Source: Minisyncoccia bacterium | GTDB lineage: Bacteria; Patescibacteriota; Minisyncoccia; Phycocordibacterales; Zambryskibacteraceae | Direction of reading: 5' to 3' | DNA: 64,000 nt | NCBI GenBank assembly: GCA_041742965.1 | Contig: JBGTNQ010000004.1 | Location: 716-64,715, forward strand | Shown here: piece after piece, positions 8,829-58,995 of the stretch | Layout of the letters: each line of letters starts with the position of its first letter | Position numbering within the stretch: the first letter of the stretch is position 1 | The notes under the pieces: generated by a model | What the model was told of the DNA's origin: nothing | Databases searched by the model: none | The model's input: only the letters and a program-made list of their open reading frames with translations | Translations under genes and position numbers: made by a program

Positions 8829-8938
8829 ATTAAAAAACAGAAAATTAATATTTGACATTTCTCTTCGATGGGGGCAACATTAAAAATAGCAGTACCGTAG
8901 CATGTTCACATTTCCTAACACCAATCAAGGGAGCGGAA

Positions 8939-9259
8939 ATGCTCAAAGAAACCCGGGTCCAGGAAGCAGTAAGCATCTTCAACACCATCAACGAGATGCT
9001 TGGTTTGACCAGTTGTTGCAAGGAGAAGTTCATTGGCTTCTGGACCAATGGGCGCCAATCTGTCGAAATCTGCATCGGAGTATTCTTCTACAAAGGAGAG
9101 GGTCTCAGGGTGCCCAAGAACGTACCTACTGATGATCCAGACCTGGCGTGGCGGGTAGGACAAATCAATCAAGCAATCAGTGAAATTTGCCCGAGTTTCC
9201 AACCACAAGGTCTGGTTGAAGTGGAAGATACAGGTAAGCCGGTGGTGGCGAGTCGCTGA
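8939..9259 (+). CDS. Hypothetical protein, GC-rich cassette B
   Basis: 106 aa. SD GGGAG 5 nt before ATG. Local GC about 50% versus about 38% in flanks. Terminator follows. No family recognised. Confidence 0.4.
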   Translation: MLKETRVQEAVSIFNTINEMLGLTSCCKEKFIGFWTNGRQSVEICIGVFFYKGEGLRVPKNVPTDDPDLAWRVGQINQAISEICPSFQPQGLVEVEDTGKPVVASR

Positions 9260-9285
9260 CTGACAGGAAAGACGCGCAGTGCGTC

Positions 9286-9315
9286 GGGGGGGACACGGAG
9301 TGTCTCCCCTTTTTC
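9286..9315 (+). terminator. Rho-independent terminator
   Basis: ggggggacac-ggag-tgtctcccc then TTTTT. Confidence 0.55.
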
Positions 9316-9385
9316 AATCCTCAAGATTATAACTATACAGGCGTGATGTTATAATAATTAAACATTAACCTAAAATAAACTCTTT

Positions 9386-9787
9386 ATGGTACTTTCAGTA
9401 ATAATCGCATCAGTAGCAAGTATGGTATTTGGTTTTATTTGGTTTTCACCAATACTGTTTGGAAAAAAGTGGATGGAGCTTTCTGGTCTTATCACAGAAA
9501 GTATGTCTCTGATGAAAGGACATGGTATGGCAAAGATCTATATTGGAAACTTTGCAATGGAAATTATTACCGCTTTTGTACTTTTTAATTTTCTGAGAAT
9601 ACTTGATGTATCATCTAGTGCCGGTGGTGTAGAAATAGCTCTTTGGCTGTGGTTTGGTTTTGTGTTACCAATAGAAGTGGGCCAGACATTGTGGATGAAG
9701 AAACCTATAATGTTACTTTTGATTAACTCTCTTCACAGGCTTGGCTCAATAACCATAATCGCCCTAATACTAACTTCTTTCTTTTAA
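9386..9787 (+). CDS. DUF1761-family membrane protein
   Basis: N-terminus SMVFGFIWFSPILFGKKWMEL matches the DUF1761 signature. 4 TM segments. Confidence 0.5.
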   Translation: MVLSVIIASVASMVFGFIWFSPILFGKKWMELSGLITESMSLMKGHGMAKIYIGNFAMEIITAFVLFNFLRILDVSSSAGGVEIALWLWFGFVLPIEVGQTLWMKKPIMLLLINSLHRLGSITIIALILTSFF

Positions 9788-9789
9788 AA

Positions 9790-10917
9790 ATGTTTAGAAA
9801 AACCATTTGCCTTTTCTTATTTGTCTTTTTTTTAATTCCGACTATTTCCTATGGCCAAAATGAACTGCATGAGGACATTCAGGGAGTGTGGAGGTCTGAA
9901 GTTATTGAGATCTTGGACCAAGATACGCGCCTAGTCCCCGGCACAGATACAGAAACAATATTTCAAACAATTCGTGTCGAGATACTTGAAGGAGATAGGA
10001 AGGGAGATATAGTTACCGTAGAAAACGACTATCTAGCTCTTGAAAAGGGAGATGTCTTTTTTATGAACTACCTCATAACAATAAACGGGGATGAGATATA
10101 TTCTGTGGGAGATGTAGACAGGAGAGGGGTCCTTGTTTTCTGGGTAGCAATCTTCTGCTTGGTAGTTTTAGCTTTGAGTGGTAAACAGGGTGTCAGATCA
10201 CTTTTGAGCTTGGCTGGAAGTCTCTTTGTAATAGTTTACTTTCTCCTTCCTGGTCTTTTATCTGGCATGTCTCCTGTAATACTGAGCACACTTATTGCTG
10301 GTGCAATATTGTTTTTTGGTATATATGTAACCCACGGATTTAACAGAGAATCTTCAGTGGCTTTTGTGGGCACGGTCTCTGCTGTTGTAATGACCAGTTT
10401 TCTGGCTCATATAGCAGTAACAACGAGCAAATTGTCCGGTTTTGCTTCAGACGAATCAGTGTTTTTAAATGTGGTTACGCGTGGGTCTTTAAATTTTGAA
10501 GGTTTGCTTCTCGGTGGAATCATAATCGGTATCTTGGGCGTACTAGACGACATTGCTGTAACTCAAGTGGCTATAGTGAGGGAACTTTTCAAAACAAACC
10601 CAAATCTTACAAAGAGAGAGGTCTATGTAAAAGCAATACGCATCGGAAAAGAGCATGTCGGGGCCCTAGTAAACACACTGGCCCTTGCTTACACTGGTGC
10701 CTCCCTTCCCCTTCTTCTTCTGTTTTCAAACTCTACATCAAACCCAGGAATGATATTGAACGGAGAAATAATTGCTACAGAAATAATACGAACGATTATC
10801 GGAAGCATCGGCCTTGTTATGACGGTTCCTATTACCACTCTACTTGCTGTCCATTTCTTGAAAGACTACGACGGAGAAACTCATATGCACCATTCACATC
10901 ACGGGCATACACATTAG
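9790..10917 (+). CDS. YibE/F-like polytopic membrane protein with His-rich C-terminus
   Basis: Signal/TM, then about 110-aa extracytoplasmic domain, then 6-7 TM segments. C-terminal HMHHSHHGHTH. Family call is tentative. Confidence 0.4.
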   Translation: MFRKTICLFLFVFFLIPTISYGQNELHEDIQGVWRSEVIEILDQDTRLVPGTDTETIFQTIRVEILEGDRKGDIVTVENDYLALEKGDVFFMNYLITINGDEIYSVGDVDRRGVLVFWVAIFCLVVLALSGKQGVRSLLSLAGSLFVIVYFLLPGLLSGMSPVILSTLIAGAILFFGIYVTHGFNRESSVAFVGTVSAVVMTSFLAHIAVTTSKLSGFASDESVFLNVVTRGSLNFEGLLLGGIIIGILGVLDDIAVTQVAIVRELFKTNPNLTKREVYVKAIRIGKEHVGALVNTLALAYTGASLPLLLLFSNSTSNPGMILNGEIIATEIIRTIIGSIGLVMTVPITTLLAVHFLKDYDGETHMHHSHHGHTH

Positions 10918-10935
10918 TTTGTTATAATATAGGCT

Positions 10936-12015
10936 TTGAATAATCATACATCTTGGCATTTATATAATAAGACTGAAGACGCTTGGCTCTCAATGAAAGA
11001 AGCGTGTATAAATGCACAAAAAACAATAGACATAGAACAATATATCATTGAGAAAGACGATATCGGGCAAGAGCTTTTTGAACTTCTGGCCAGCAAACAG
11101 AAAGAAGGTGTGCATGTACGAATACTCTGTGACATGGTCGGGAGCTACTCTTTTTTTGCATCTGATTTACCCAATGCGCTGAGAGATGTGGGGGTTAATG
11201 TTCGCTTCTTCAACATAATAAAACCTTGGCGAATTCATTCATTTTTTTCTTGGTTCTTTAGGGACCATAGAAAAATTATGGTTGTCGATAATAATGTAGG
11301 CTTTATAGGTGGAGTAGGGTTTAGAGACGATATGAGGGATTGGCGTGATACGCATGTCAAAGTTATAGGGCCGGTAGTTAAAGAAATGCGTTTGGCCTTT
11401 GAAGAGATGTGGGAAACCGCGGGCAAGGAAAATTTCTTCAGAAGGATGGAGCGGACAAGGAAATTTATCCCTGGATTCAACTTCCTTACAAATTCACCAT
11501 TCGTTAGAAAAAGGTTCATCTATAGAAATATAATTTCTACATTAAAAAACGCCCGTAAATACGTATTCATCACAACACCGTATTTTGTACCAGATCGAAG
11601 ATTAAGAAAGGCCTTTATCCAAGCATCAAAAAGAGGGGTGTCTGTACAAATACTTATACCAAAAACATCAAATTATTTGGTTATCGACCGCGCCTCTAGA
11701 ACATGTTTTGATCAACTCTTATCGGCAGGAGTGAGAATATTTCTATACCAAGGAGAAATGCTTCACGCCAAAACCGCGGTCTCCGACGACACGTGGGCAA
11801 GTATTGGCAGTTTCAACCTAGATTCTTTGAGTTGTTTCTATAACTACGAAGCAAATATAATATCTACAAAACCTGAGTTTATCCTTGAGTTAAGAGATTT
11901 TTTTGAACATGATTTAAAACTAGCCGAAGAGGTGTCTCTAGATGGTTGGAGGGAAAGATCCAAAATACAGAAGTTTTATGAACTACTCATATACCCATTT
12001 CGTAGATTCTTATAA
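10936..12015 (+). CDS. Phospholipase D family protein (cardiolipin synthase-like), two HKD motifs
   Basis: First HKD motif: HRKIMVVDNNVGFIGGVG. Second HKD motif: LHAKTAVSDDTWASIGSFNLD. Confidence 0.65.
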   Translation: MNNHTSWHLYNKTEDAWLSMKEACINAQKTIDIEQYIIEKDDIGQELFELLASKQKEGVHVRILCDMVGSYSFFASDLPNALRDVGVNVRFFNIIKPWRIHSFFSWFFRDHRKIMVVDNNVGFIGGVGFRDDMRDWRDTHVKVIGPVVKEMRLAFEEMWETAGKENFFRRMERTRKFIPGFNFLTNSPFVRKRFIYRNIISTLKNARKYVFITTPYFVPDRRLRKAFIQASKRGVSVQILIPKTSNYLVIDRASRTCFDQLLSAGVRIFLYQGEMLHAKTAVSDDTWASIGSFNLDSLSCFYNYEANIISTKPEFILELRDFFEHDLKLAEEVSLDGWRERSKIQKFYELLIYPFRRFL

Positions 12016-12087
12016 ATAAACGCCGTATTGTTCAAAAAGCTTTAAAATGCTATACATAATGGGATATTATCGATTAACATATATTCA

Positions 12088-12603: not shown

Positions 12604-12709
12604 TTTCGTGGGCGTATAATCAAAATCTAACAGCCTGATTAATAAATACTGTTGGACTAGACAAAACCCTAAAAACAAGTAATATAGAGTGCCGTGGCTT
12701 AAAAATTAT

Positions 12710-12904: not shown

Positions 12905-12908
12905 AAAT

Positions 12909-13253: not shown

Positions 13254-13256
13254 ATC

Positions 13257-25146: not shown

Positions 25147-25488
25147 TTATTTAGCCCCCACTGTAGAAGCCTTGGCTGATTGAGCTGCTGCAATTTCTGC
25201 TTCTTTTTTCTTTTGCTCGAGCTCTTTCTGCATCTTTCCTCCGTGACGAACAAACTTTCTAGTTGGAGAAAATTCACCAAGTCTATGCCCTACCATGTCT
25301 TCAGTTACAAAAACTTCGACATGTTCTTTTCCATTGTGAACACCAAAGGTGAAACCCACCATTTCTGGAGCAATCTGACTGGCTCTAGCCCAAGTTTTGA
25401 TTATTCCTGTTTCATTGGGCTTTTTCCCCTCAATTTTTTTGAGAAGTCTTTCGTATACATATGGACCTTTTTTGCTTGAACGTGTCAT
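25147..25488 (-). CDS. rpsS: 30S ribosomal protein S19, with Ala/Lys-rich C-terminal tail
   Basis: Start moved to [11 protein letters not shown] (cat at 25486-25488). The tracked N-terminal 21 aa overlaps the promoter. Confidence 0.88.
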
Positions 25489-25522
25489 AGAGAATAGAAA
25501 AAGCTCGGACGAGCTCCAGAAG

Positions 25523-25551
25523 ATACTATACAAAATGGGCCTAAGTGTCAA
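25523..25551 (-). promoter_or_regulatory. Sigma70-like promoter driving rpsS. -35 TTGACA, 17-nt spacer, -10 TAGTAT.
   Basis: Plus-strand tgtcaa at 25546-25551 and atacta at 25523-25528. About 30 nt upstream of the rpsS ATG. Confidence 0.55.
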
Positions 25552-25662
25552 ACCCTGTAGTGAATTTTGGTCTCACAGCAAAGCTGTGGTACAGAGCACA
25601 AGACCAAAATCTACTACTGGGTCAAATCCTTAGCTAGCTTAAAGGCTTATAGGGAGATCCTA

Positions 25663-25704
25663 CAAAAACAGCGCCCCGCTATGGCCGAAGGCCACCGCGG
25701 GGCT
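25663..25704 (-). terminator. Rho-independent terminator (minus strand) at the end of the cassette C ORF
   Basis: gccccgc-ggtggccttcggccat-agcggggc then TTTTT on the minus strand. Confidence 0.55.
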
Positions 25705-25990
25705 TGCTAGCAGTGAATGGATATAGCGTATCGGGCGGATTAAATGGTATGTTCCACTTCACCAGAAACGGGTGCCCCTCCCGAACAAAGCCCTCGCTCA
25801 CAAAGTTGGCCCAATCCAACTCATGGGCCACCAACTCACTAGTCCCGACCTCGTTATCATCCAAAAACATAAAAAAGAAACCGGACTCATGAAGCCAAAA
25901 CTCAACTTCTCGTACTCCATCTTGAGACTTATGACGCCACTTGCCATCACTGTAGAGAATAGGGCCTCGCTCTGCGGGTTTACGCCACAT
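25679..25990 (-). CDS. Hypothetical protein, GC-rich cassette C inserted between rplB and rpsS
   Basis: 103 aa (MWRKPAERGPILYSDGKWRHK...). SD GGGGGG 5 nt before ATG. GC about 50%. No family recognised. The C-terminus runs into the terminator stem, so the exact 3' end is uncertain. Confidence 0.4.
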   Translation of the reverse strand: MWRKPAERGPILYSDGKWRHKSQDGVREVEFWLHESGFFFMFLDDNEVGTSELVAHELDWANFVSEGFVREGHPFLVKWNIPFNPPDTLYPFTASKPRGGLRP

Positions 25991-26131
25991 CGTCACCCCC
26001 CAATAGACGCATTAGAACTTTCTGTATTTGAAATACCACTAAATGAAAATTTTTACAAGTACAAACACAAACCCCGCGCCAGTATTGACGCGGAAAATTT
26101 CTACTTTACTTAACAAAAGAACAGACCTATC

Positions 26132-26160
26132 AAAAAACGGCCTTATCGGGCCATTTTTTG
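26132..26160. terminator. Weak bidirectional terminator-like hairpin
   Basis: AAAAAA-cggcc-ttatc-gggcc-ATTTTTT. Confidence 0.35.
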
Positions 26161-26186
26161 TGTTGTATTTTGCATTTCCAACATCG

Positions 26187-26276
26187 GAAAACCCCTCTGG
26201 AAAACATTGCGCAGGCGGGTAGCCGAGCATAGCAATTCGCAAGCTTGCGAATATGCGTGTTTTCCAGAGGGGTTTT
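26187..26276. repeat. Perfect 19-bp inverted repeat enclosing a 52-nt loop that contains a 16-nt palindrome (ttcgcaagcttgcgaa)
   Basis: aaaacccctctggaaaaca ... tgttttccagaggggtttt. Immediately 3' of the rplB stop. Confidence 0.6.
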
Positions 26277-26331
26277 TATTTAATTTGTATTTATAAACTA
26301 TAAGCTTACAGCTAAAAGCTCTAAGCTACCC

Positions 26332-27171
26332 TTATTTCTTCCCAACCTTCCTCCTACGAACAATGAAAACATTTGAATATTTCTTTGGTCGGCGAGATTT
26401 CTGTCCCTTTCCAGTAGGTCTTCCAGTAGCTGTCTTCTGTCTTCGGCTTCCGCGACCAGAACGCCCCTCTCCTCCTCCGTGTGGGTGGTCAACAGGGTTC
26501 ATGGCAGTACCTCGAACAGTAGGACGAATCCCAAGCCATCTACTTCTTCCAGCTTTACCGAGGTTTACTAGACGATTTTCATCATTTGAAACTTCACCAA
26601 TAGTTGCCCAAGAATTTTCACTTACCTTGCGAACTTCAGAAGAAGGCATCTTAAGATCCACTGCTCCAGCATCCTTTGCTACCACTTCAATGAAGCTCCC
26701 AGCTGAACGGCCGAGCTTAGCACCACCTTTTGGTTTTACTTCAACATTGTATACAAAAGTACCAACAGTTATTTCTTTCAAAGGAAGGCGGTTTCCAGGA
26801 ATTTGTGGGGCAGACTCTGAAACAATGAGTGTGTCACCCACCTTTACACCTTTTGGAAGAAGAACATATCTCTTTTCACCATCTCTGTAAACAGCGAGAC
26901 CTATGAACCCTGTGCGATTTGGATCATACTCAACGGTTTTTATAGTATAAGGAATATCGAACTTGTTATATACAAAATCAACATCTCTAAAAAGCCTTTT
27001 GTGACCTCCGCCCTTGTGTCTTGTAGTAATACGACCATGGTGGTTCCTGCCCATCTTTCTCTTGAAGCCTGAGGTCAATGACTTTTCAGGTTTTTGAGTA
27101 GTCACAATATCTCGATAGTGAATCGAGGTCATGTTGCGTCTTGAGGCTGTTGTTGGTTTAAACTTTTTCAT
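26332..27171 (-). CDS. rplB: 50S ribosomal protein L2
   Basis: GRNHHGRITTRHKGGGHKR ... C-terminal Gly/Arg-rich region. Confidence 0.92.
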   Translation of the reverse strand: MKKFKPTTASRRNMTSIHYRDIVTTQKPEKSLTSGFKRKMGRNHHGRITTRHKGGGHKRLFRDVDFVYNKFDIPYTIKTVEYDPNRTGFIGLAVYRDGEKRYVLLPKGVKVGDTLIVSESAPQIPGNRLPLKEITVGTFVYNVEVKPKGGAKLGRSAGSFIEVVAKDAGAVDLKMPSSEVRKVSENSWATIGEVSNDENRLVNLGKAGRSRWLGIRPTVRGTAMNPVDHPHGGGEGRSGRGSRRQKTATGRPTGKGQKSRRPKKYSNVFIVRRRKVGKK

Positions 27172-35187: not shown

Positions 35188-35241
35188 TTCTCTCAATTTT
35201 CTGCTAGAGTTGTATGAGAATGCCCTTTCAAGGAGAATCTC

Positions 35242-35571
35242 GTGGATACTCTAACAGGAACCACAGCAACCACCGACTCGAAATTTCAAGAGTTGGAATT
35301 CCCAGTACCCAAACACCTGTGCCCATCATGCCTGATGACGGTATCACCTGTCGTAAGTAGTGATGAATACAAGAAGGCACTACCCAACATGCTTTGCTAC
35401 AGGCCATGCCCGACAGCGCAAGACTTGTACGGAGCAATAATGAAAGTGCCTGGAATACTTTTGTACAGGTTCCAATGCGGAACCCTCTTCGTGACTTGTG
35501 ACAATACGCACAATCACGAAGAAATTCGTCGGGAAATTCTCCAAATCATAAACCGCCCAGTAGGTGATTAG
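35242..35571 (+). CDS. Hypothetical Cys-rich protein, GC-rich cassette D
   Basis: 109 aa. GTG start 5 nt after SD AAGGAG. GC about 48%. Multiple CxxC/CP motifs. Terminator follows. Confidence 0.45.
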   Translation: MDTLTGTTATTDSKFQELEFPVPKHLCPSCLMTVSPVVSSDEYKKALPNMLCYRPCPTAQDLYGAIMKVPGILLYRFQCGTLFVTCDNTHNHEEIRREILQIINRPVGD

Positions 35572-35592
35572 CCTGCGGGCGGTTTTATGTTT
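35551..35592. terminator. Intrinsic terminator (bidirectional)
   Basis: aaccgccc-18 nt-gggcggtt then TTAT. Confidence 0.5.
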
Positions 35593-35594: not shown

Positions 35595-36452
35595 TTATTT
35601 AACTTTGATATTTGTTCCGTCTGAATGAAAAGTAATATTCCCCTCTTTTGCTGTTTCAAAAATCTTTACATCAAAATTTTTTAATCTCTCTACTACATCT
35701 ATATGAGGATGGCCATAAGAATTATCTTTGCCAGCGGATATAACCCCGTACTTTGGAGAAACGGCGGACAAAAAAATATCACTGGTTGAAGTTTTTGAAC
35801 CATGGTGGCCAACCTTTAGAACTTCGCAATTTAAACTGTTCCCCAAAATACTAACGATGTAATTTTCCATCTTTTCTGGAGCATCACCAGTTAACATAAA
35901 ACAAGTATCGCCATATACATAACGAGCGATAATGGAAGCATCGTTTGTATTTAAAGAAGAAACATCTCTATCCGGAAAAAGGATTTCCAGATAAGATCCG
36001 TCCATCAAATCAACTATCATTCCCTTGTGAGCAATCAAAGTTTTGACATCTTTTTCGGTTAAAAGCCTGTCTATCTCATCATCAAAAGAATTTGGAGACT
36101 CTGCCCCCGGTTCAATAAAAACCCCCACCCTATACCTGTTTATCAAGTGTGGGAAACCTGCAATATGGTCTTTGTCCGGATGCGTGGCGACCAGAACATC
36201 TACAAATTTATCGAAAAAAGAAATTTCTTTTGATATTTGCCTCAAAATAGATTTACTTGGACCAGCATCAATGATGATTTGATTCCCAGTTCTGCCAGTT
36301 ATGAGCAAGCTATCTCCCTGACCGACGTCTAGAAAAGACACAGAAACATAGTCCTTTGGCCTCTCATAGAATACCGCCGTCCAAATGGCAACATTGATAA
36401 TAACCAAGAATAAAAGTCCTAAAGACTGATAGTTTTTCTTGATTTGTCCCAT
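35595..36452 (-). CDS. Membrane-anchored MBL-fold protein resembling the ComEC/Rec2 C-terminal metallo-beta-lactamase domain
   Basis: One TM segment. MBL motifs: HPDKDHIAG, LKVGHHGSKTS. Start moved to ATG 36452 (MGQIKKNY). Confidence 0.55.
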   Translation of the reverse strand: MGQIKKNYQSLGLLFLVIINVAIWTAVFYERPKDYVSVSFLDVGQGDSLLITGRTGNQIIIDAGPSKSILRQISKEISFFDKFVDVLVATHPDKDHIAGFPHLINRYRVGVFIEPGAESPNSFDDEIDRLLTEKDVKTLIAHKGMIVDLMDGSYLEILFPDRDVSSLNTNDASIIARYVYGDTCFMLTGDAPEKMENYIVSILGNSLNCEVLKVGHHGSKTSTSDIFLSAVSPKYGVISAGKDNSYGHPHIDVVERLKNFDVKIFETAKEGNITFHSDGTNIKVK

Positions 36453-36518
36453 ATTTTTATTATAACCCCAGCAAATGATATAATTAAAAAGCGACAACTT
36501 ACTATTTAAGCCAATACA

Positions 36519-37109
36519 ATGACCCAATTTCAAGAACAAAAATTTAATATTCCAAAGCTCATTGGAATTTCGGAAAAAAACATTGAAGAACACTTGAAGC
36601 TTTACTCTGGATATGTGAAAAATGCCAACACTATTCTTGAAAAGATAGACGAATACAAAACAGATAGTGAAAAACATGCTTATGCACTAGGAGAACTTGG
36701 CCGAAGATTTGCATTTGAATTTGATGGTATGAGAAATCACGAATACTATTTCCATTCACTTGAAGGTGGGGCGACGCCACTTTCAAATGGAGCTCTAAAA
36801 GAAAAAATTGAAGAAACTTGGGACTCACTTGATAATTTCCTGACAATGTTCAAGGCTCTCGCCCTGACGCGCGGTGTAGGATGGGCATGGCTCTATTATG
36901 ACAAACACACCGACAGACTCTTAACACAGTGGAGTGATGAGCAACATTTAGGCCACCTCGTTGGCTGTACACCAATCCTCGGTATTGATGTTTGGGAACA
37001 TGCATTTGTCTCCGACTATCAACCTTCTGGTAAAAAACAATATGTGGAAGACTTTTTATCCAATCTAAACTGGTCCGTTATAGAGGAAAACTACAATCAA
37101 TCGAAGTAA
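36519..37109 (+). CDS. sod: Fe/Mn superoxide dismutase family protein (divergent N-terminal His pair)
   Basis: C-terminal GIDVWEHAF ... NW signature, GVGWAWL, RNHEYY. The canonical HHxKHH is replaced by EEHLKLY. Confidence 0.6.
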   Translation: MTQFQEQKFNIPKLIGISEKNIEEHLKLYSGYVKNANTILEKIDEYKTDSEKHAYALGELGRRFAFEFDGMRNHEYYFHSLEGGATPLSNGALKEKIEETWDSLDNFLTMFKALALTRGVGWAWLYYDKHTDRLLTQWSDEQHLGHLVGCTPILGIDVWEHAFVSDYQPSGKKQYVEDFLSNLNWSVIEENYNQSK

Positions 37110-38945: not shown

Positions 38946-40430
38946 CTAACTAACAGACTTTGTGTTAATTTTTTGATACAAGAAAAATAGAAGACAACTG
39001 AGGTACAGAAACACCAATAATCCGACGGGAACGGCGCCGAAAGACAGAGCGCTTAGTGGTAAATTGGCGAAAAAAGTAGATACAAAAACAATATAAGCGA
39101 GGAACAAATATGATATGAATCCCGGAATTATAGCTAGAGCTCCAGAGATTAAACTTAAAATTCCCGTGACGAACCCCAGAAACATAACTAGAGGAACGAT
39201 GGGCAAAACAATTAAATTTACAATAAACCCCGATATTGAAACTGTTCCTATAGCGTAAAGCAAGAGTGGTAAAACAAAAAGCTGGGTAGACAAGGTGGCA
39301 GAAGCAATATCTCGCAGACCAAACTTCTCTGGTATCAGAGAAAACCTCTTTTCAAAAATGGGAGCTATCCAAATAATAGCGACAGTGGCTAGGAAAGAAA
39401 GTTGGAAACCTAAATCAAAAGCCAGCACAAAAGGGTTCCATAAAACCATCACAAACAGAGCAATCAAAAGTGAGCGAGATACAGCATATGTTCTGTGAGT
39501 AAAACGCGCCACAAGAACCAATAGGGCCATTAGAGATGCTCTCACCACAGAAGGTCCCGCACCAACCATAATTGCAAACAACACTATCCCCAAAGCACTA
39601 AAAACAAGGGCTCTTTTACGAGACAAAAAAGAAAGTGTCTTCATCACCGCTTCTGCTACGAGGGTGATGTTGTAACCAGAAAGAACGATGATATGAATAA
39701 TGCCCACAATCCTGAAAGCATCTAAAAGGTCGTCCCCCAGAGATTCTTCACTACCCAAGAGAATGCCAGCGAGTAAGGATGATTCTGGATCTGGTATTGC
39801 CCTTTCTATCGCCCCAATGAAAACATTTTTGCCAGTGAAAAGCGCCCTGCGTAAAGAAAAAGCGGATTGGCCAGCCTTGTCAGTAGTAGCGAAAGATAGA
39901 ATAAAATGTACACCCTCTTTCCTCAAATATTTTTCATAATCAAAAACTCTGCCACCCTCTGTCTCAAATGGTTCTGGGCGATTGAGTGTTCCGCGAACAA
40001 TAAGCTTGTCACCATAGAAAAACTCTGGAAACATATCCGCCCTCACAAGCATTCTTTCACCGGAATTTGTCTCCACTAAATATTCTCTATAAGACGCCCT
40101 CTCCCTGGGCTCTTTGACAACTTTGCCAACAACAGAGATCTTTTCACCAGAAAGTTCAACCAAAATTTGGTTGATTGGTTTATCTACCGATATGAAACGC
40201 AATACACCAAACCCATAACAAAGTAAAAAAATAGATGCTAAAAAAAATATTTCTCGAAAATATTTATCAGGAATAGAGCGCCAAGAATACAATAGTGTCA
40301 GAACCCCGAGGAAGACTGCGAACACTCCGAAGGGTATTGAAGCAAAGCCAAACGAGGCACACCAAACGCCGACACAAAATCCGATAACAAAAGAAAATAT
40401 CCAAAATCTCTTTAATGGATTTTCTTCCAT
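38946..40430 (-). CDS. ComEC/Rec2-like DNA-uptake channel membrane domain (no MBL domain)
   Basis: 494 aa. N-terminal DUF4131-like region plus a polytopic Competence-domain-like core. Confidence 0.55.
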   Translation of the reverse strand: MEENPLKRFWIFSFVIGFCVGVWCASFGFASIPFGVFAVFLGVLTLLYSWRSIPDKYFREIFFLASIFLLCYGFGVLRFISVDKPINQILVELSGEKISVVGKVVKEPRERASYREYLVETNSGERMLVRADMFPEFFYGDKLIVRGTLNRPEPFETEGGRVFDYEKYLRKEGVHFILSFATTDKAGQSAFSLRRALFTGKNVFIGAIERAIPDPESSLLAGILLGSEESLGDDLLDAFRIVGIIHIIVLSGYNITLVAEAVMKTLSFLSRKRALVFSALGIVLFAIMVGAGPSVVRASLMALLVLVARFTHRTYAVSRSLLIALFVMVLWNPFVLAFDLGFQLSFLATVAIIWIAPIFEKRFSLIPEKFGLRDIASATLSTQLFVLPLLLYAIGTVSISGFIVNLIVLPIVPLVMFLGFVTGILSLISGALAIIPGFISYLFLAYIVFVSTFFANLPLSALSFGAVPVGLLVFLYLSCLLFFLYQKINTKSVS

Positions 40431-43696: not shown

Positions 43697-44146
43697 ATGA
43701 ATAAAGGTAAAAATTCAAACGGGGCAGGTGTTTCAACGGAGGACTGCATATTTTGTAAAATCATTGATAAAAAGATTCCAGCTGAGATCGTTTATGAAAA
43801 CGATACAATATTGGCCTTTCTTGATATAAACCCAGTAAATGAAGGGCATACTCTAATCATACCCAAAGACCACTATCCTCAGATGACAGATGTACCTAGT
43901 GAGACTTTGGGGGAAATATTTGGATATGCCAAGGAAATGATGTCTAAAATAAAAGAAGCTGTGAATGCTGATTTTGTGGCCTTAACGGTGGTTGGCACAG
44001 ATGTCTCCCACTTTCATATTCACCTAGTACCAAGAATGAATAATGACGGACTTGCTGGTTTTTGGCCAACAAAAAAATATGAGAGTGACGAAAAAAAGAA
44101 AGAAGTTGGAGAGAAAATTCGCCGACAACTTGAGAAAAAGGGCTAA
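43697..44146 (+). CDS. HIT-family (histidine triad) hydrolase
   Basis: CIFCKII ... HFHIHLVPR histidine triad. Confidence 0.8.
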   Translation: MNKGKNSNGAGVSTEDCIFCKIIDKKIPAEIVYENDTILAFLDINPVNEGHTLIIPKDHYPQMTDVPSETLGEIFGYAKEMMSKIKEAVNADFVALTVVGTDVSHFHIHLVPRMNNDGLAGFWPTKKYESDEKKKEVGEKIRRQLEKKG

Positions 44147-44205
44147 AAGTGTATACTCTTGGCAGAAATTGAACTTGACTCTGACCCTGTCACGAAAGGA
44201 ATCAT

Positions 44206-44427
44206 ATGCGTTCTTTCTCGGAGCTGGTATTTCTGGCCATCGTCTTTACCGCAGGAGTGGCCATGATTGTAGTACCGCTGTCCCAAAGCATGGATTATTA
44301 CACCGTCGTAACCCTGGGTGTAATATTCGTGGTCGTTTCGACCATTGAATTCACGATTCACCTAGGTAATCTAACAATCAGAGGCCTCCGGTCTCTGATT
44401 CGCCGTCCACCCTCACGAACTTCGTGA
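44206..44427 (+). CDS. Small 2-TM membrane protein, GC-rich cassette F
   Basis: 73 aa. SD AAAGGAA before ATG. GC about 50%. Terminator overlaps the 3' end. Confidence 0.35.
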   Translation: MRSFSELVFLAIVFTAGVAMIVVPLSQSMDYYTVVTLGVIFVVVSTIEFTIHLGNLTIRGLRSLIRRPPSRTS

Positions 44428-44441
44428 GGGTGGTTTACTTT
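44407..44441 (+). terminator. Rho-independent terminator
   Basis: ccaccctcacgaa-c-ttcgtgagggtgg then TTTACTTT. Confidence 0.5.
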
Positions 44442-52428: not shown

Positions 52429-55400
52429 TTAAAACTCTTCGAATATTGGATCGAGTGCAATAATAATTGTACCCTGAGCGAAAGCTGTTCCTTCATTACA
52501 GCTAACATCAACCCTTATTGTTTTTGAACCGGTAGTAGAGTATGCCATGTTGAAAGTGCTACCGGTTGGAGCTGGAGAAGTTGGAACTTCTGTTCCAGAC
52601 CAAGTATAAGTACAATTTGTGCCACCCACTACGGTTGCAGACCAAGGAACATTCTGACCCACGCCAGCCTTTGATGGACCATTTATTGTAATAGTAGGGG
52701 CCGCTGGATTAGAAACAATCAAATTAAAGAACGTTGTCTTATCTAGGGTACCAGGAGATGTTCCAGTAACTGTGATCGGATGAGTCCCAGGAGGAGCCGT
52801 AGATTGAACAGTGAAAGTGGCGGTACTAGGACAGGTTGGATTTGGACTACATGATGTTGGAGCAAAAGAGACACTTACCCCAGAAGGTAGTCCTGACGCG
52901 GACAAACTAACTGCTTGTGTCGTCCCTTGAATATAGTTTCTTGTAATGGTGTTTGAACCATTAACTGCAGACGAGCTCTTTGTAACAGAAATATTTCCTG
53001 AATTTGAAAGACTGTAATCAAAAGCTGGACCAGAAACAGTCACTGTCGCACTAGCGGGCGTAGTTCCACCAGGACCAGTACAAGTCAGGGTGTATGTGGT
53101 GTTGCTTGTTGGAGAAACATTTTCTGAACCACCAGTGGTAAGTTTACTTCCACTCCAACCGCCGGAAGCAGTACACGATGTAGCATTAGTTGATGTCCAA
53201 GTTAAAGTTGAACTCTGCCCACTTGTGATAGTGGTTGGAGAAGCGGATAGGGAAACACTAGGTGCCGTTATTGCCAATGGAAACAACTGAGTTTGAGGAA
53301 TAATCTGTTTGGCAGTTGAAGGGCTCGCCCATGAAAGCTGAGCTGTTGCTCCTCCAGTATTTTCATAGTACTCCATTACAATATTGTATTTCGTACCACC
53401 AGTAAGAGTGACAGGCGCTGAAGATACTTCTGTGGGGGCCTGGTCAACCCACCGACTTATTATCTGACTGCCGTTTACCCACAACCGAGTGCCGTCATCA
53501 GTTCGAGTATAGAAGGTATAGCTTTCAGAACACCTTGCCTCTATCTGACCTTCCCAACGCACAGAGAAAGTATCGGGACCACCAGCGCGATTTGTACCAA
53601 GAAAATCTGCTGGATCAAAGTTTATAGTTGAATCAACATATTGACCCATAAGAGTATTGAATGATATTCCATCATAATATGTACCTCTAAGACCGGTTCC
53701 TGCGCCAGCAGAAACACAAGTAGAAGCTGTATAATTAACTGTAAACTGTTTCGTCTGACCACCAGCAATATTTAATGAATTACCGCCATCACTACTGGTT
53801 ATAGAAGAAACTACATATGAAGCGGGGGATGAATTTGAAGTCAGAGAATATGTTCCAGCGGGAACAGTATTTGAAGTACCAGTATAACCTCCTGGATTAA
53901 TCACCCAAGAACCACCGGAGGCACCATTTTCTACTACATTTATCACCCCAGTTGCTGGTCCAATATTAACCCTGAAGGTATCAACTGCGGTCGTTGTGCC
54001 GTCATTACAGCTTATTCCAAAGTCTGTCGGATTAACGCTAAGTGGCCCTAGCCCCGGTGCTGTATTCAATGTTCCACTACTTCCATAACTTCCAACCCAC
54101 CAACCGCCAGTAGCCGTACATATAGTACCAGCAAGATTTGGCCCAGTACTTGACCACTGTAGATTCACATAGCTTCCGGAAGGAAGTGTTATGGATTGAA
54201 CATAGCTTCCAGTACCATGCTGTCTTCCTGTAAGATCTACAGTCAATGAAGCGCACGCCGAGGAAGATGTCGTCCAAGAAGTATTGGAAGATAAAAGAGA
54301 ACTTCCAGCAGCATTGAATGCCCTGACATTATAGTAATGAGAAGTACCTGGAGTTACAGTGTCTGTATATGATGTGCCAGAACCTGAATATATAGGAGTA
54401 CCTCCGCCGTCTCTGTAAATACTATAGCTCGTAGCTCCTGCTACTGAAGACCAAGTAATATCGATTCGACCACCGCAAGTTGAAGAAGTGGACGCGTTTA
54501 TTGTCGGAGCATTAGGTACTCTCTGTGCAAAAACCGTATCACTTACTGTTCCTCCGCCAGAAAGATTACATGTTATTGGGTAAGTTGTTCCAGAAACGGA
54601 AGGATATTGGGGATGAGAACTTGCAAGAGGGCCGGCAGAACCATTCACTCCAACTCCAGAATTTACAGGGGCACCAATTGAACAAGAGGTTGTGTTTGAA
54701 GATGACCAGTTGTACCAGAAGTTTTGCAGGATTCCAGACACATACCCCAAATAAACAGGTCCGTCAGAGAAAGTGCTTCCATTATTACTTGCCTTTATGT
54801 CAACAGAACCTCCGACAGGACATGCGCTAGGAGCAGTGGCGGGAACAGAACTCGAATAAACAGATGAACCGTATGCATTTGAAGCCAAAACTGTATAACT
54901 GTGACTTGAATTGGCTACTAAACCGGTGTGAGAAAACGAGGTAGATGGACCTGTGTATATGTCTGTTGAACCGTCACGAAGGGTATAACTCGTAGCACCA
55001 GGAGAAGCATCCCAAGACACATTTATAGTTCCTGTTCCACAAGAACCACTTGGTATTGCTGTAAGCCCCGTTGGGGTGGCTGGTACAACATTTACAGTAA
55101 CACTGTCGCTAGGGCCATTGCCACCACTGTTACTACAATAAATACTAAAAGTAGTGGATACAGTTAGAGGTCCCGTGGACTGACTGTTTGATGAAGCAAA
55201 GCCCTTCCCTCCTGTCCAGTTTGAATTGCCCTGATTATTAGAAGCGGTGCAAGATGTTGGCGAATTACTAGTGGTCCAAGTTAAATTAGCGGAAGTATTA
55301 TATGTAATAGATATTGGGCCATCAGAGCTATTGGCTTTTATGTCTACATTTGGTAGCCCAACAGCATCACAGGTATAATTAATAGTAAATTGCTTTGTCT

Positions 55401-56064
55401 GACCATAAGAAACATTTAAAGAATTGCCACCGTCTGTGCTAGAAACAGAGTATCCAGTAGCGCCTCTAGGTGTAGTATTAACAGTCAAATTATATGTACC
55501 CGGTGATACCGTATTGCTTGATCCTGTATAACCACCCGGATTAACTGTCCATGTGCCACCACTAACACAGCCGGCCGTTGAAACAATTATTGTTGCTGGA
55601 GAACAATTCACGTCAACATATGTGAAATCCTCGGCTGTTTCTGCGTAACCAGGGGCTGGCCCACTACCATAATACTGTAATGTATATCCGTGAGGATATC
55701 CGGGAAGACTATCTGGAACACCTGAGTCGACATAGCTATTACTAACTCCTTGGAAAAACCCCAGGTCAACATAGTAACCCTGCCATCTATATAATTTAAA
55801 CCAAGCAGTATCACCATCGGTAATCAATGCGGGATTAAAATTCGGCGAAATACGAAAAGAGTTACAGCTGAGTGGAGTTACCACCGTCTCACCTCCAGCA
55901 AGAGCTATATTTATTGGAAATGCTCCGGTAAGTGAGAGTAATAAAGAAAAAATTATAGATAAAAAAACAATCTGTCGCCTCCAAAGAAGGGTGCGCATTT
56001 CTGTAGGAAAAAAAACGATTCTTGAAATTTTTTTTAACATAATAGTATTTAGAAGTCGTTTCAC
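52429..56064 (-). CDS. Giant secreted surface protein with FN3-like repeats and a PA14 domain (putative adhesin)
   Basis: 1211 aa. Signal/TM. FN3-like repeats: PATPTGLTA...SYTLRDG. PA14-like block: GLRGTYYDGISFNTLMGQYVDSTINFD...ESYTFYTRTDDGTRLWVNG...YNIVMEYYENTGGATAQLSW. Confidence 0.6.
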   Translation of the reverse strand: MKRLLNTIMLKKISRIVFFPTEMRTLLWRRQIVFLSIIFSLLLSLTGAFPINIALAGGETVVTPLSCNSFRISPNFNPALITDGDTAWFKLYRWQGYYVDLGFFQGVSNSYVDSGVPDSLPGYPHGYTLQYYGSGPAPGYAETAEDFTYVDVNCSPATIIVSTAGCVSGGTWTVNPGGYTGSSNTVSPGTYNLTVNTTPRGATGYSVSSTDGGNSLNVSYGQTKQFTINYTCDAVGLPNVDIKANSSDGPISITYNTSANLTWTTSNSPTSCTASNNQGNSNWTGGKGFASSNSQSTGPLTVSTTFSIYCSNSGGNGPSDSVTVNVVPATPTGLTAIPSGSCGTGTINVSWDASPGATSYTLRDGSTDIYTGPSTSFSHTGLVANSSHSYTVLASNAYGSSVYSSSVPATAPSACPVGGSVDIKASNNGSTFSDGPVYLGYVSGILQNFWYNWSSSNTTSCSIGAPVNSGVGVNGSAGPLASSHPQYPSVSGTTYPITCNLSGGGTVSDTVFAQRVPNAPTINASTSSTCGGRIDITWSSVAGATSYSIYRDGGGTPIYSGSGTSYTDTVTPGTSHYYNVRAFNAAGSSLLSSNTSWTTSSSACASLTVDLTGRQHGTGSYVQSITLPSGSYVNLQWSSTGPNLAGTICTATGGWWVGSYGSSGTLNTAPGLGPLSVNPTDFGISCNDGTTTAVDTFRVNIGPATGVINVVENGASGGSWVINPGGYTGTSNTVPAGTYSLTSNSSPASYVVSSITSSDGGNSLNIAGGQTKQFTVNYTASTCVSAGAGTGLRGTYYDGISFNTLMGQYVDSTINFDPADFLGTNRAGGPDTFSVRWEGQIEARCSESYTFYTRTDDGTRLWVNGSQIISRWVDQAPTEVSSAPVTLTGGTKYNIVMEYYENTGGATAQLSWASPSTAKQIIPQTQLFPLAITAPSVSLSASPTTITSGQSSTLTWTSTNATSCTASGGWSGSKLTTGGSENVSPTSNTTYTLTCTGPGGTTPASATVTVSGPAFDYSLSNSGNISVTKSSSAVNGSNTITRNYIQGTTQAVSLSASGLPSGVSVSFAPTSCSPNPTCPSTATFTVQSTAPPGTHPITVTGTSPGTLDKTTFFNLIVSNPAAPTITINGPSKAGVGQNVPWSATVVGGTNCTYTWSGTEVPTSPAPTGSTFNMAYSTTGSKTIRVDVSCNEGTAFAQGTIIIALDPIFEEF

Positions 56065-56090
56065 TTTTAAAAGGAGTTTAATATTTTAAT

Positions 56091-56642
56091 TTAGTTATTT
56101 TCTGTATAACTTATTTGCACCACCGTCTCGCCATTTAGAGAAGAAGCAACAACTAGAAGTGAATCGCCATTTTTTGTTCCGTTAAGGGCGTGATTTCCCT
56201 CATCTCTTCCATTTTCAGCAAATTCAAAACCTGCTCTAGTCATATAATCCAGATATTGATTATATTTTTCTAAAGCAGTGCTTGTTGTGGTGTAATTGAC
56301 AGTATGGACAGTTATTGGGACTGGTCTGTCGGTATAGACTTTTGTATCGCTGACTGTAATGGTCTCCAGCTCAACAGGAATATCTCTAGGGAAACCTTCT
56401 GGTAGTTTTTCTGCGTCTGTTTGAGCATTATTTATATCAACTGCATTAAGAAAAACGCTTTCTTCTGTAACATCACTCCCTTGCCCATCTAGATTATTGC
56501 CAGAGCGTCTGTCCTTACCAACAATGGAAAATAAGACAAAGATAAGTAGAAGGGCAACGAAAGCTACGATTATTGAAACAATACTCTTATCAAATTTGCC
56601 TGAATTAGTTCCATTTTTTGACATTTGTTCTTGTGGTGGCAT
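56091..56642 (-). CDS. Hypothetical membrane-anchored protein
   Basis: 183 aa. Single TM. No family recognised. Confidence 0.4.
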   Translation of the reverse strand: MPPQEQMSKNGTNSGKFDKSIVSIIVAFVALLLIFVLFSIVGKDRRSGNNLDGQGSDVTEESVFLNAVDINNAQTDAEKLPEGFPRDIPVELETITVSDTKVYTDRPVPITVHTVNYTTTSTALEKYNQYLDYMTRAGFEFAENGRDEGNHALNGTKNGDSLLVVASSLNGETVVQISYTENN

Positions 56643-56977
56643 ATTAAAAAATATTAAATTACTAAAATAAAAGAGAATTGTTGATATTCTATCATAAAAT
56701 TGCCCTGCTTAATGAATTAAGTTATACACATAAGGGTTGCACAGAAATCCCAATTAGATAATCAAAAAGATTCAAAACGCAAGATTATAGCCCTGAAAAA
56801 TGTCAGTAATATCTTCCGAGATTAAAAAATCTATTATACCTGAAGTCAATATATTGACTCGTATGCGATAACGCTTGACTATGTAGACAGAGCTAACGAG
56901 GTTACTTTGTTTAGCGCACCTTGACACACCACATATTCCTCTAGGTCTAAAGCCAGAGGATTAACAGAGGAGGTATT

Positions 56978-58384
56978 ATGGAACGCATTGGATTTAACCG
57001 CCTTGGACAAATTTTGTCCATTCGGGTGGTCGTGGTCGCATTGGTATTCGCAACATTGGTTTCCTGCAAGAGTACTGGCTTCGTCGACCCACCCCCAGAA
57101 GAGACCTTGACCGTCTCCATCGTCTCACCGTCATCCTCAAATATCCAACAAAATGGATGGCCAGATAGCCAAGTAGAGTTGCAGGCTGAAGCCAGAAGTT
57201 CTGTTGGCGGTAGAATAACCAGCCCTTCCCTCATCACATGGAAAAAGGCTGGGGCAGTGATCGGTAGTGGTCAGCTGGTCTCTGTATCATTTGAAAACGG
57301 AAACCATGAGGTCTGCGTTGTTGTGAAAAGCGCGATCAACCAAGGTTCTGAAAAAGAGGTCTGCTTGTCATTTGTCGTCACCCCAGCCCCACCGATCACA
57401 GTTGAGCTCGTAACATCAGCGAAGCTTGGCGTCATAAACTGCCAGAACTTCAGGGCCTATGCCCAGAGGGGCTCTGTTGCCGATTCGGCTGACTTCAATG
57501 TCAACTGTCGGGCAGAAGTGTCTCCAAGACTTACCCTTCTCCAAGACACCAACAGGGTCAATGTCTGGTTTGATGCCAAGAACACATCTAACCGTAGCCA
57601 CTACCCTAGTATGGCGTCTGTGGCGAAGGACTCTCTCAAGGTCAACCAAAAGTTTGTAGCCGGACCATTGGAGTACAGAATACACTCCGGTAAATGGTCC
57701 GACCAGACGATTGGTATTGACTTGGAGACAGCCTTCGCCATAAGTGCTGACGGTATTTTCTCTTTTTACCGCAGTTCAACAGTAGGAAGTAACTCAGTCT
57801 ACTACAGCATTGGTGGACGGCTTCCAAATGGGTTTCCCATCCAAATCACAGTGCGCAAAGAGTCTGGGCAAGGAGCATTAACCCCAACTGACACTGTCGG
57901 TTTTGGAAATGCAGTAACTGAGCTGTCAGAAGAACTCGGAATGCCTATGACGATGGTTTCACTTTCGGCCTCAGAAGTAAGTGGCTGGAATGGAATCTTG
58001 GCAATAGTCTCAGACACCATACCAATACCAGTAGGTAATACACAATGGGGCGCGAGCGGTGACATAATTGGGGGACGAATTATCGTCTCGCCAAACACAA
58101 TTCCGCACGCCTTCAAACATACAGTTAAACACGAGCTTGTACACGCCCTTGGTGTCGGCCATGTGTCACTATGGCCACCCGGTCTCATGAGTACAGACCA
58201 GAGTAGTATCAATGTGGGTAGCCCCAACTATGCGGTCCCTCAACCGCTAGAAACAGGCCACCTTTGGTTCATGTACGATATCTGGGAAGCCAAGAGGCAG
58301 TCTGGTGCACAATATGGCATTCCGAATATGCATCAGGCTTGGCGTGTGCTCGTTCTCAACCTCCCGTATCAGCACATCCGCTGA
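56978..58384 (+). CDS. Lipoprotein with C-terminal metzincin-type zinc metalloprotease motif, GC-rich island G
   Basis: Lipobox LVSC. HELVHALGVGH (HExxHxxGxxH) with a Met (GLMS) 10 residues downstream of the third His. SD AGGAGG 5 nt before ATG. GC about 52%. Confidence 0.55.
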   Translation: MERIGFNRLGQILSIRVVVVALVFATLVSCKSTGFVDPPPEETLTVSIVSPSSSNIQQNGWPDSQVELQAEARSSVGGRITSPSLITWKKAGAVIGSGQLVSVSFENGNHEVCVVVKSAINQGSEKEVCLSFVVTPAPPITVELVTSAKLGVINCQNFRAYAQRGSVADSADFNVNCRAEVSPRLTLLQDTNRVNVWFDAKNTSNRSHYPSMASVAKDSLKVNQKFVAGPLEYRIHSGKWSDQTIGIDLETAFAISADGIFSFYRSSTVGSNSVYYSIGGRLPNGFPIQITVRKESGQGALTPTDTVGFGNAVTELSEELGMPMTMVSLSASEVSGWNGILAIVSDTIPIPVGNTQWGASGDIIGGRIIVSPNTIPHAFKHTVKHELVHALGVGHVSLWPPGLMSTDQSSINVGSPNYAVPQPLETGHLWFMYDIWEAKRQSGAQYGIPNMHQAWRVLVLNLPYQHIR

Positions 58385-58410
58385 TCTTTAAATATTGTGG
58401 TGTTCACGAT

Positions 58411-58460
58411 TTGGCCCCTGTGGCCAAACAACCCAGCGACATGTCGTTGGGTTGTTTTAC
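58411..58460 (+). terminator. Tandem hairpin terminator
   Basis: ttggcc-cctgt-ggccaa, then a near-perfect 30-nt palindrome aacaacccagcgacatgtcgttgggttgtt, then TT. Confidence 0.5.
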
Positions 58461-58649
58461 CCCCAAAAAATTGATGTGTTTTACCAAGTCCCCCACTTAG
58501 TGTTATTTAATTTAAGATATACTGGCCATTAACCTCTGCCTGAAAATAACTATAAAAGTGAATTGACAACAACTCTGTTTTCTTCTATACTATAACCACA
58601 TCCAGGGCACTTCCGCCTTAGAGATGAAGATTGATCTTTTGAAAGGAAG

Positions 58650-58868
58650 GTGATTTGTATGGACAACCGCAACCCTCATCACGCTGAAGGTTTCCGCACG
58701 TCAACAGTGACCAGGTACTTGCCAATCAAGACCTGCGTTGCGGTACGTATCGGAGAAACCGTCGATGTCAGGGACTCGAAACATGGTGACAGTCCAACCC
58801 TATCATTCACCCCTGCTGAATGGGATGCTTTCGTCCAGGGGGTCAAGAAGGGTGAGTTTGACATCTAG
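58650..58868 (+). CDS. DUF397 (BldB-like) family small protein, GC-rich island G
   Basis: VRDSKHGDSPTLSFTPAEWDAFVQGVKKGEFD matches the DUF397 C-terminal signature. SD AAGGAAGG before ATG. Confidence 0.6.
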   Translation: MICMDNRNPHHAEGFRTSTVTRYLPIKTCVAVRIGETVDVRDSKHGDSPTLSFTPAEWDAFVQGVKKGEFDI

Positions 58869-58897
58869 GGATGCATCACCTGTGACGATTCACTCAA

Positions 58898-58932
58898 GTG
58901 GTAGACAGAGGACCCTCCTGTCTACCACTTTT
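58898..58932 (+). terminator. Rho-independent terminator
   Basis: gtggtagacag-aggaccctc-ctgtctaccac then TTTTG. Confidence 0.55.
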
Positions 58933-58995
58933 GATAATAAGATAGTTCTAAGTATAAAAATTAACGCAAACCTAATTCTCAGTAACTTATATAAA

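Follow-up and report, generated by a model that had tools for sequence, protein, structure and literature searches.

GC-rich, Shine-Dalgarno-led gene cassettes at housekeeping junctions of a Paceibacteria chromosome: candidate moron-like modules, one of which encodes a putative diversity-generating retroelement variable protein

Why should a chromosome whose own genes are depleted in Shine-Dalgarno (SD)-like motifs carry short GC-rich islands in which every open reading frame (ORF) is preceded by one? The question is raised by a 64-kb stretch of contig JBGTNQ010000004.1 of a Minisyncoccia bacterium (assembly GCA_041742965.1, positions 716 to 64,715), hereafter the window, in which we called 72 genes: 65 native genes and seven ORFs in six islands, here termed cassettes C1 to C5, C6a and C6b. 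The host chromosome is that of a member of the Paceibacteria (Parcubacteria, in the Candidate Phyla Radiation, CPR). Its ribosomal operon in the window lacks L30, and the best relatives of its RecJ and M50-like protease, 41-68% identical, are found in metagenome-assembled genomes (MAGs) labelled Zambryskibacteria, Taylorbacteria, Paceibacteria and Patescibacteria and in groundwater metagenomes. We consider it on balance probable that the islands are moron-like autonomous accessory modules that circulate within the Patescibacteria and have been inserted in housekeeping gene junctions, and not recent imports from an actinobacterial host.

A preliminary description of this DNA had reported GC-rich segments in an AT-richer genome, each with an SD and an intrinsic terminator, among native genes that have no SD. 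The composition was borne out. The whole window is 40.5% GC, while the six islands, in the order of their positions, reach 49.1, 49.7, 47.0, 50.7, 47.6 and 46.4% (range 46.4-50.7%), between the 94th and 99.4th percentile among same-size windows. The last island, given as 56650-58940, is GC-rich as described, but its first 300 nt are AT-rich; when these are trimmed, it rises to 48.5% GC and the 99.9th percentile. Separation is complete in the GC content at third codon positions (GC3), which is 0.49-0.65 in the seven cassette ORFs and 0.24-0.42 (median 0.32) in the 65 native genes, with zero overlap (Mann-Whitney p = 8e-6).

SD strength was scored as the pairing energy (dG) of the 17 nt upstream of the start with CACCUCCUUU, which may not be the host's own anti-SD. 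At dG <= -5.5 kcal/mol an SD precedes all seven cassette ORFs and 5 of the 65 native genes (Fisher p = 5e-7); at dG <= -7 the counts are 6/7 and 3/65. A GC-rich hairpin with a T-run lies downstream of each of the seven cassette ORFs. Matches of at least 10/12 to a sigma-70 promoter were found only for C4, C5 and C6b (10-11 out of 12), 48-166 nt upstream; the remaining four cassettes have weaker matches only. The seven cassette proteins show no mutual relatedness, and the 'family' of cassettes first described therefore stands as a common architecture and not as a group of related proteins. Rfam gave no RNA family match in any island, either at the gathering threshold or at a permissive one (E <= 0.5). 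The cassettes and their signals are the following (dG in kcal/mol).

8852-9314, plus strand: C1, with TTGACA at 8852; GC 0.50, GC3 0.56
8929-8933, plus: C1 SD GGGAG, dG -7.8
8939-9259, plus: C1 ORF, 106 aa, no family match
9271-9285 and 9286-9309, plus: C1 tandem hairpins, followed by a T-run
25489-26331, minus: C2 insertion, 843 bp, between rplB (26332-27171) and rpsS (25147-25488), inside the S10 operon
26276-26188, 26152-26139 and 26095-26072, minus: three terminator-like hairpins after rplB
26001-25993, minus: C2 SD GGGGGGTGA, dG -12.5
25990-25679, minus: C2 ORF, 103 aa, GC3 0.54
25690-25668, minus: C2 terminator
25551-25523, minus: putative rpsS restart promoter TTGACA-N17-TAGTAT, 34 nt before rpsS
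35214-35590, plus: C3, with SD AAGGAG at 35230-35235, dG -8.3
35242-35571, plus: C3 ORF, GTG start, 109 aa, Cys-rich, GC3 0.49
35552-35590, plus: C3 terminator, overlapping the stop codon
41180-41815, minus: C4, with promoter TTGACT-N18-TATAAT at 41815-41786
41745-41688, minus: hairpin inside the C4 5' untranslated region of about 160 nt
41631-41626, minus: C4 SD AAGGAG
41619-41266, minus: C4 ORF, 117 aa, predicted variable protein with C-type lectin fold, of the type diversified by diversity-generating retroelements (DGRs); variable-repeat equivalent at the 3' end
about 41216-41180, minus: C4 terminator
44130-44440, plus: C5, with promoter-like TTGAGA-N16-TATACT, -10 box at 44152-44157
44195-44201, plus: C5 SD AAAGGAA, dG -5.9
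44206-44427, plus: C5 ORF, 73 aa, predicted small membrane protein, GC3 0.53
44407-44433, plus: C5 terminator and T-run
56950-58461, plus: C6a, with SD AGAGGAGG at 56966-56973, dG -12.8
56978-58384, plus: C6a ORF, 468 aa, lipobox LVSC, zinc motif HELxHxLGVGH, GC3 0.51
58426-58457, plus: C6a terminator
58563-58934, plus: C6b, with promoter TTGACA-N17-TATACT at 58563-58591
58643-58653, plus: C6b SD AAGGAAGGTGA, dG -12.4
58659-58868, plus: C6b ORF, 69 aa, DUF397, GC3 0.60
58896-58930, plus: C6b terminator

Set against the gene order of relatives, the islands are shown to be insertions. The junction of recJ and rnhA is no longer than 42 bp in 23 of 42 relatives, whereas here it spans 727 bp at 50% GC and holds C4; that of hit and pgk, which 14 of 31 relatives keep to 16 bp or less, is here 300 bp long and holds C5. 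Only one relative, L109, covers the junction of rplB and rpsS, and there the two genes are 3 bp apart, as against 843 bp, with C2, in the window. Judging from the hairpins behind rplB and the promoter-like sequence before rpsS, the S10 operon was evidently split and re-promoted by the C2 insertion. The first of the post-rplB hairpins (26188-26276) is a perfect 19-bp inverted repeat whose 51-nt loop itself contains a palindrome. The C2 protein matched only itself among 5.8 billion proteins, and with no homologue at hand no donor can be named for it. Readings of the islands as integron, miniature inverted-repeat transposable element or transposon were dropped for lack of terminal inverted repeats, target-site duplications and shared repeats; no repeats common to the islands were found anywhere in the window.

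The cargo of C4 proved the most informative. An exhaustive HMMER search collected 104 homologous cluster representatives, with a domain of about 110 aa whose predicted fold matches C-type lectin-like domains and TvpA; the family profile had no match among PDB sequences or in Pfam. Seven genomic contexts were examined, that of the window and those of six further retrieved loci. All six further homologues are GC-rich (GC3 0.59-0.72) and SD-led, and each stands in a different context, its visible neighbours being AT-rich housekeeping genes of CPR-like contigs, one of which is a named MAG. One host is itself 50% GC, and the C4 homologue is even richer there. The homologous loci carry near-consensus promoters, leaders and terminators, with untranslated regions that can partly be aligned with those of the window copy. 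At three loci, L115, L117 and L118, the last ~140 nt of the C4-family gene are repeated about 500 nt downstream. Within the core, the two copies diverge almost exclusively at adenines of the downstream (template) copy, which account for 17/38 mismatches in L115, 15/21 in L117 and 26/30 in L118, the remainder lying in the flanks, and the template copies hold AAC codons at the variable positions. Mismatches between template and variable repeat that are specific to adenines are diagnostic of DGRs. By this pattern, as read from the three repeat pairs, the C4 family is shown to be of DGR nature, and C4 itself is a predicted variable protein. A CPR-restricted clade of DGRs and the C-Lec fold of variable regions have been described (PMC8144416), and the C4 family fits both.

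The retroelement itself was not seen beside C4. Neither the window nor L120, another C4-homologue contig, yielded a copy of a C4-family template repeat, and the non-housekeeping ORFs of the window turned up no domain of reverse transcriptase or Avd. Neither is listed among the genes around the C4 homologues, and the short Logan contigs reached via the window's end genes hold no reverse transcriptase and no template repeat. Remote DGR reverse transcriptases are known, and a target acting in trans is possible; C4 of the window is either a remote target or an orphaned one.

Several further features of the C4 family were observed. A conserved element of ~250 nt lies between the terminator of the variable repeat and the template repeat (L115:8585-8840, L117:8585-8865, L118:6660-6950). 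RNAalifold predicts 54 pairs in it, 13 of them with compensatory changes among the three sequences, and Rfam gave no match; no reverse transcriptase gene lies within 6-8 kb of it at these loci. From this modelled structure we regard the element as a candidate DGR-associated structured RNA. The leader hairpin of C4 (41688-41745) has 24-nt arms, GTCATAGCC...GGCTATGAC, and its counterparts in L115 (GGTCATAGCGA...TCGCTATGACC) and L118 (GTCGCCATAGC...GCTATGGCGAC) keep the pairing despite changed bases; it may be a cis-regulatory or DGR-homing element. The 3' untranslated regions of C4-family genes in the window and in L115/L118 have CCTTGG-like repeats in common. On the single short contig of L120, the C4 homologue is accompanied by two further GC-rich ORFs of GC3 0.62-0.65, one being SD-led (the three lie at 231-740, 945-1442 and 3632-4123); the third ORF resembles other C4-family members at its N-terminus, which suggests multi-copy C4-family paralogues.

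The last island encodes C6a and C6b. C6a has just two homologues in 5.8 billion proteins, P0005 (57% identical) and P0006 (49%). Each lies on a related AT-rich contig and, as in the window, immediately before GIY-YIG and nusA. Both are richer in GC3 than their neighbours (0.39 against ~0.25, and 0.52 against 0.36-0.41), and AAGGAG stands before each of them, but no SD before the genes beside them. All three proteins keep HELVHALGVGH, with a conserved LM downstream, and C6a is predicted by its motifs to be a lipoprotein with a zinc motif of metzincin type; Pfam and NCBIfam have no model that matches it, and an AlphaFold2 model from the three sequences (predicted local distance difference test score, pLDDT, 34) was unusable. 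C6b belongs to DUF397 (PF04149; 49.3 bits against a cut-off of 24, E = 5.6e-13) and matches PHROG 10815, the one match that PHROGs, NCBIfam and PADLOC gave among all cassette proteins. A full-length DUF397 gene, 45% identical to C6b, with GC3 0.75 and an SD, adjoins the same alpha/beta-hydrolase gene on the contig L003, one of the two with a C6a homologue. The actinobacterial plasmid and phage matches of C6b, found by tblastn in Streptomyces, Nocardia and Nonomuraea plasmids and a Saccharomonospora phage, are weaker or partial, being either 39.7% identical across 96% of its length or 48-57% identical across roughly half. The question of which lineage is closest to C6b appears ambiguous on these identities.

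For the small cassettes there is less to compare. C1 and C3 had no match in Pfam, PHROGs, NCBIfam or PADLOC, and scans of IMG/VR with C1, C3 and the C4 alignment yielded no relatives (for C1, no close relative). No trace of C1-C5 was seen in any of 113 related loci. In dinucleotide shuffles, the ORF length was matched by chance in 156/2000 cases for C1 and 167/2000 for C5 (~8%), in 2% for C2 and 1% for C3, and for C4 with p = 0.02; by ORF length alone, coding of C1 and C5 is supported only moderately.

The same pattern recurs beyond the window. In 80 related AT-rich loci, we took as outliers ORFs of 90 aa or more whose GC3 exceeds the locus median by 0.10 or more, and as an SD a dG <= -7. By these definitions, 15 of 43 outliers (35%) and 16 of 570 other ORFs (2.8%) are SD-led (p = 5e-11), and among the outliers that have no SD, many are evidently spurious ORFs on the antisense strand. 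Slots that hold cassettes in the window are occupied elsewhere by unrelated GC-rich, SD-led ORFs: the pgk/hit slot in L010 and L011, and in L052 and L007 the slot of C3, flanked by the genes of the ComEC-C lactamase and the M50-like protease. GC-rich, SD-led orphan genes also stand in the str operon, between rpsG and fusA or after fusA (L052:12681-14159, L037:12821-13687), in parallel with the insertion in the S10 operon of the window. Ten such cassette proteins of relatives were scanned; nine had no Pfam domain and one was a NUDIX protein, and none resembles another or any cassette of the window. In the homologues of C4, C6a and DUF397, the SD is kept while the surrounding untranslated regions have diverged past alignment, which argues that the SD is probably functional. 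A GC-rich ORF resembling serine recombinases lies directly after recJ in L021 (11702-13363; GC3 0.49, median 0.30), the only mobility-type gene among the GC-rich outliers.

How, then, do the native genes start? A TATAAT-like box that ends 6-8 nt before the ATG was found for 78 of 362 first-in-operon genes of the window and its AT-rich relatives, over a background of ~5 per offset. A -10 box ending just before the ATG is the classic signature of leaderless transcripts. Many first-in-operon host genes thus look leaderless, and the boxes indicate leaderless transcription that would be widespread across this Paceibacteria clade, a mechanistic counterpart to the reported lack of SD before native genes. 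In a published survey, the anti-SD motif was found in only 48% of Parcubacteria 16S rRNAs (PMC9297842).

These observations can be assembled into an explanation. Single-gene expression modules would enter conserved housekeeping gene junctions of the Paceibacteria chromosome, each supplying a canonically spaced SD of its own, together with a strong intrinsic terminator by which the flanking operons would be insulated. C4, C5 and C6b add a strong promoter match with a leader of 48-166 nt, and downstream of C2 a new promoter would restart transcription of rpsS. The cargo is heterogeneous: a predicted DGR variable protein (C4), a predicted lipoprotein with the zinc motif (C6a), DUF397 (C6b) and four small proteins that match no family. 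Native initiation, leaderless or at unstructured AT-rich starts, would be unusable for a GC-rich, structure-prone mRNA with a leader; the composition of the cassettes would plausibly create the need for an SD. The modules would be expressed, and would keep their GC-rich, SD-led character as residents of the lineage rather than as recent arrivals from a host. They would be gained and lost at recurrent permissive junctions as part of a flexible Patescibacteria gene pool. With ComEC domains and components of a type IV pilus encoded in the window, we infer natural transformation and recombination as a plausible route of transfer.

Several points weigh against this explanation. The 3' ends of 16S rRNA, which would bear the anti-SD, were sought in the window and in all 124 fetched loci and none was found. 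No terminal inverted repeats, integrase or target-site duplications occur at any cassette border. A strong promoter match is limited to three cassettes of the seven. C6a and C6b appear to have descended vertically within their clade, so that the word 'circulating' may not apply to them, and the likely coding status of C1 and C5 is read from the geometry of ORF, SD and terminator only. Why GC-richness should persist without amelioration also lacks an explanation if the islands are such modules.

How else might the islands have arisen? The initial description saw in them repeated acquisition, the donor being an organism that uses SD and has a GC content of about 50% or more, possibly a host or co-resident bacterium, with DUF397 noted as actinobacterial. 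Taken as fairly recent transfer from outside the CPR, for example from an actinobacterium, with GC content and SD not yet ameliorated, this would account for the union of atypical composition with SD, for the absence of C1-C5 from the 113 related loci and for DUF397, a family dominated by actinobacteria and with plasmid and phage matches; the competence and pilus genes of the window would permit the DNA uptake. What can be traced, however, leads back into the host's own lineage, where the closest homologues of C6a and C4 are found, an outcome that the preliminary description had itself named as a refutation: C6a is known only from relatives and at the same locus, and all seven C4 contexts are CPR-like. 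DUF397, although ambiguous, is present in a relative at 45% identity with the same microsynteny, and C2 has no homologue in 5.8e9 proteins. Moreover, the contrast in GC and SD persists at ~50% protein divergence, which argues against recency. Repeated acquisition therefore holds in so far as the islands are distinct, are inserted and, for C1-C5, have no trace in the related loci, and falls short on the identity of the donor and on recency where these are testable; as a whole we consider such recent import unlikely. The islands could conversely be long-resident vertical genes, whose GC3, leader and SD are held by selection (SD-dependent regulation or mRNA structure) and whose absence elsewhere reflects loss or divergence. 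The orthologues of C6a at one locus, with elevated GC3 and SD in three genomes, the conserved pair of DUF397 and hydrolase, and the SD kept amid unalignable untranslated regions are what this would predict. It is hard to reconcile with a C4 homologue whose context differs in every genome, with junctions so tight in most relatives that insertion here is implied, with unrelated genes in the same slots and with the lack of any trace of C1-C5, and appears quite improbable as a general account.

Slightly less probable still is that C1 and C5, and possibly C2 and C3, are non-coding, either structured RNAs or decaying remnants with fortuitous ORFs. The shuffles produce ORFs of such length at the frequencies given above, no homologue demonstrates constraint at the protein level, and C1 is overlapped by ORFs in other frames. 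Yet all four have an SD 5-9 nt before the start and a terminator directly after the stop, Rfam finds nothing in them even at the permissive threshold, and C4, with a similar shuffle value, is demonstrably a conserved protein. An assembly or binning chimera, in which foreign GC-rich reads were spliced in, is hardly credible: the compositional step itself is all that speaks for it, whereas islands of 300-2000 bp lie exactly between intact genes with matching regulatory signals, like islands recur in many unrelated MAGs and metagenome contigs, and an independent Logan assembly of SRR28170462 reproduces the C2 locus identically, from which it follows that the islands are no artefact of the assembler. 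The chimera was excluded on the last two grounds.

The moron-like modules that we favour may be part of something broader, although we put this forward as a rather improbable extension: Paceibacteria could have two expression regimes, an AT-rich, leaderless, SD-less core and stable GC-rich, SD-dependent modules exchanged phylum-wide. Such modules may include DGR variable proteins and may land at recurrent junctions, even in ribosomal protein operons, and the spread of cassettes might depend on the structured RNA beside the C4-family template repeats. If the anti-SD is missing in this lineage, the conserved SD-like motifs would demand another explanation, and could be a non-canonical recognition element or mark genes for expression in another cell.

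Uncultured CPR bacteria account for a large part of bacterial diversity, and the ways in which they express genes and acquire accessory functions are poorly understood. If the pattern holds, composition and SD together would give a simple rule to pick out the flexible gene pool of CPR genomes, with its proteins that lie at the surface, interact with a host or are diversified by DGRs. In such genomes, a gene caller adjusted either to SD or to the coding statistics of AT-rich genes would mis-handle one of the two gene classes. The cell would offer a natural system in which leaderless and SD-led initiation occur together, the S10 and str ribosomal operons would be seen to tolerate inserted insulated modules, and C4 would represent an uncharacterised, widespread family of small DGR target proteins with a candidate DGR-associated RNA.

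Three other features of the window were recorded. ComEC looks split, with the Competence and DUF4131 domains on the one hand and the metallo-beta-lactamase domain on the other in separate genes of the same strand (35595-36677 and 38946-40430), and an ABC transporter gene lies in the 2.3 kb between them. An ORF of 1211 aa (52429-56064) with a PA14 domain adjoins pilB, pilC and pilin genes; its GC content at second codon positions (GC2) is 0.60 and its GC3 0.27, and it is probably a large surface or adhesin protein. A tRNA-Ile at 3006-3080 has the unusual anticodon TAT, and 200 nt downstream its 3' half recurs as a 41-nt copy (3239-3279) of 90% identity; this copy could be a remnant attachment site or a duplicated tRNA fragment.

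Among known systems, the cassettes can be compared to integron cassettes, in that they are small, mostly single-gene, unrelated to each other and largely of unknown function. Integron cassettes, however, are normally promoterless, while a strong promoter match accompanies three of those described here; attI, attC and an integrase are all missing, as is any shared 3' inverted-repeat element beyond ordinary terminators, and the cassettes are scattered through the window rather than arrayed. Like acquired islets and orphan genes, they are compositional outliers with a patchy distribution and without known function. Most acquired orphan genes are AT-richer than their host, whereas these are GC-richer, keep the contrast at ~50% identity and, where they have homologues, have them in the same phylum.

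With the DGR variable proteins (Mtd, TvpA and the CPR-restricted DGR clade 2, PMC8144416), the C4 family shares a C-terminal variable repeat, a template downstream in three homologues, mismatches at template adenines, a C-type lectin fold and CPR-like host genomes. It differs in the very small size of C4, with its domain of ~110 aa, in the lack of template repeat, reverse transcriptase and Avd around C4 within 64 kb, and in the three template-bearing homologues, which have no reverse transcriptase in 6-8 kb and possess the conserved structured element.

The closest likeness is to phage 'morons', a concept of Hendrix and colleagues. Each cassette, too, is one gene that brings its own terminator and, for three of the seven, a strong promoter match; its composition is unlike that of its neighbours, it lies between genes that are adjacent in relatives, and its cargo is unrelated from case to case. 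As predicted from their signals, all seven cassettes would be autonomous transcription units of deviant composition, with terminators in 7/7 and promoters strong in 3/7 and weaker in the rest. Unlike morons, the cassettes sit in a cellular chromosome, flanked by ribosomal, recJ, rnhA, pgk and nusA genes and by no phage genes, and only DUF397 among their cargo matches a PHROG; the contrast between SD-led cassettes and leaderless or SD-less neighbours also lies outside the moron concept. The known kind to which the cassettes would belong is that of moron-like accessory modules, and what would be new is that one of them encodes a predicted DGR variable protein and that they reside in a CPR lineage that is otherwise SD-less.

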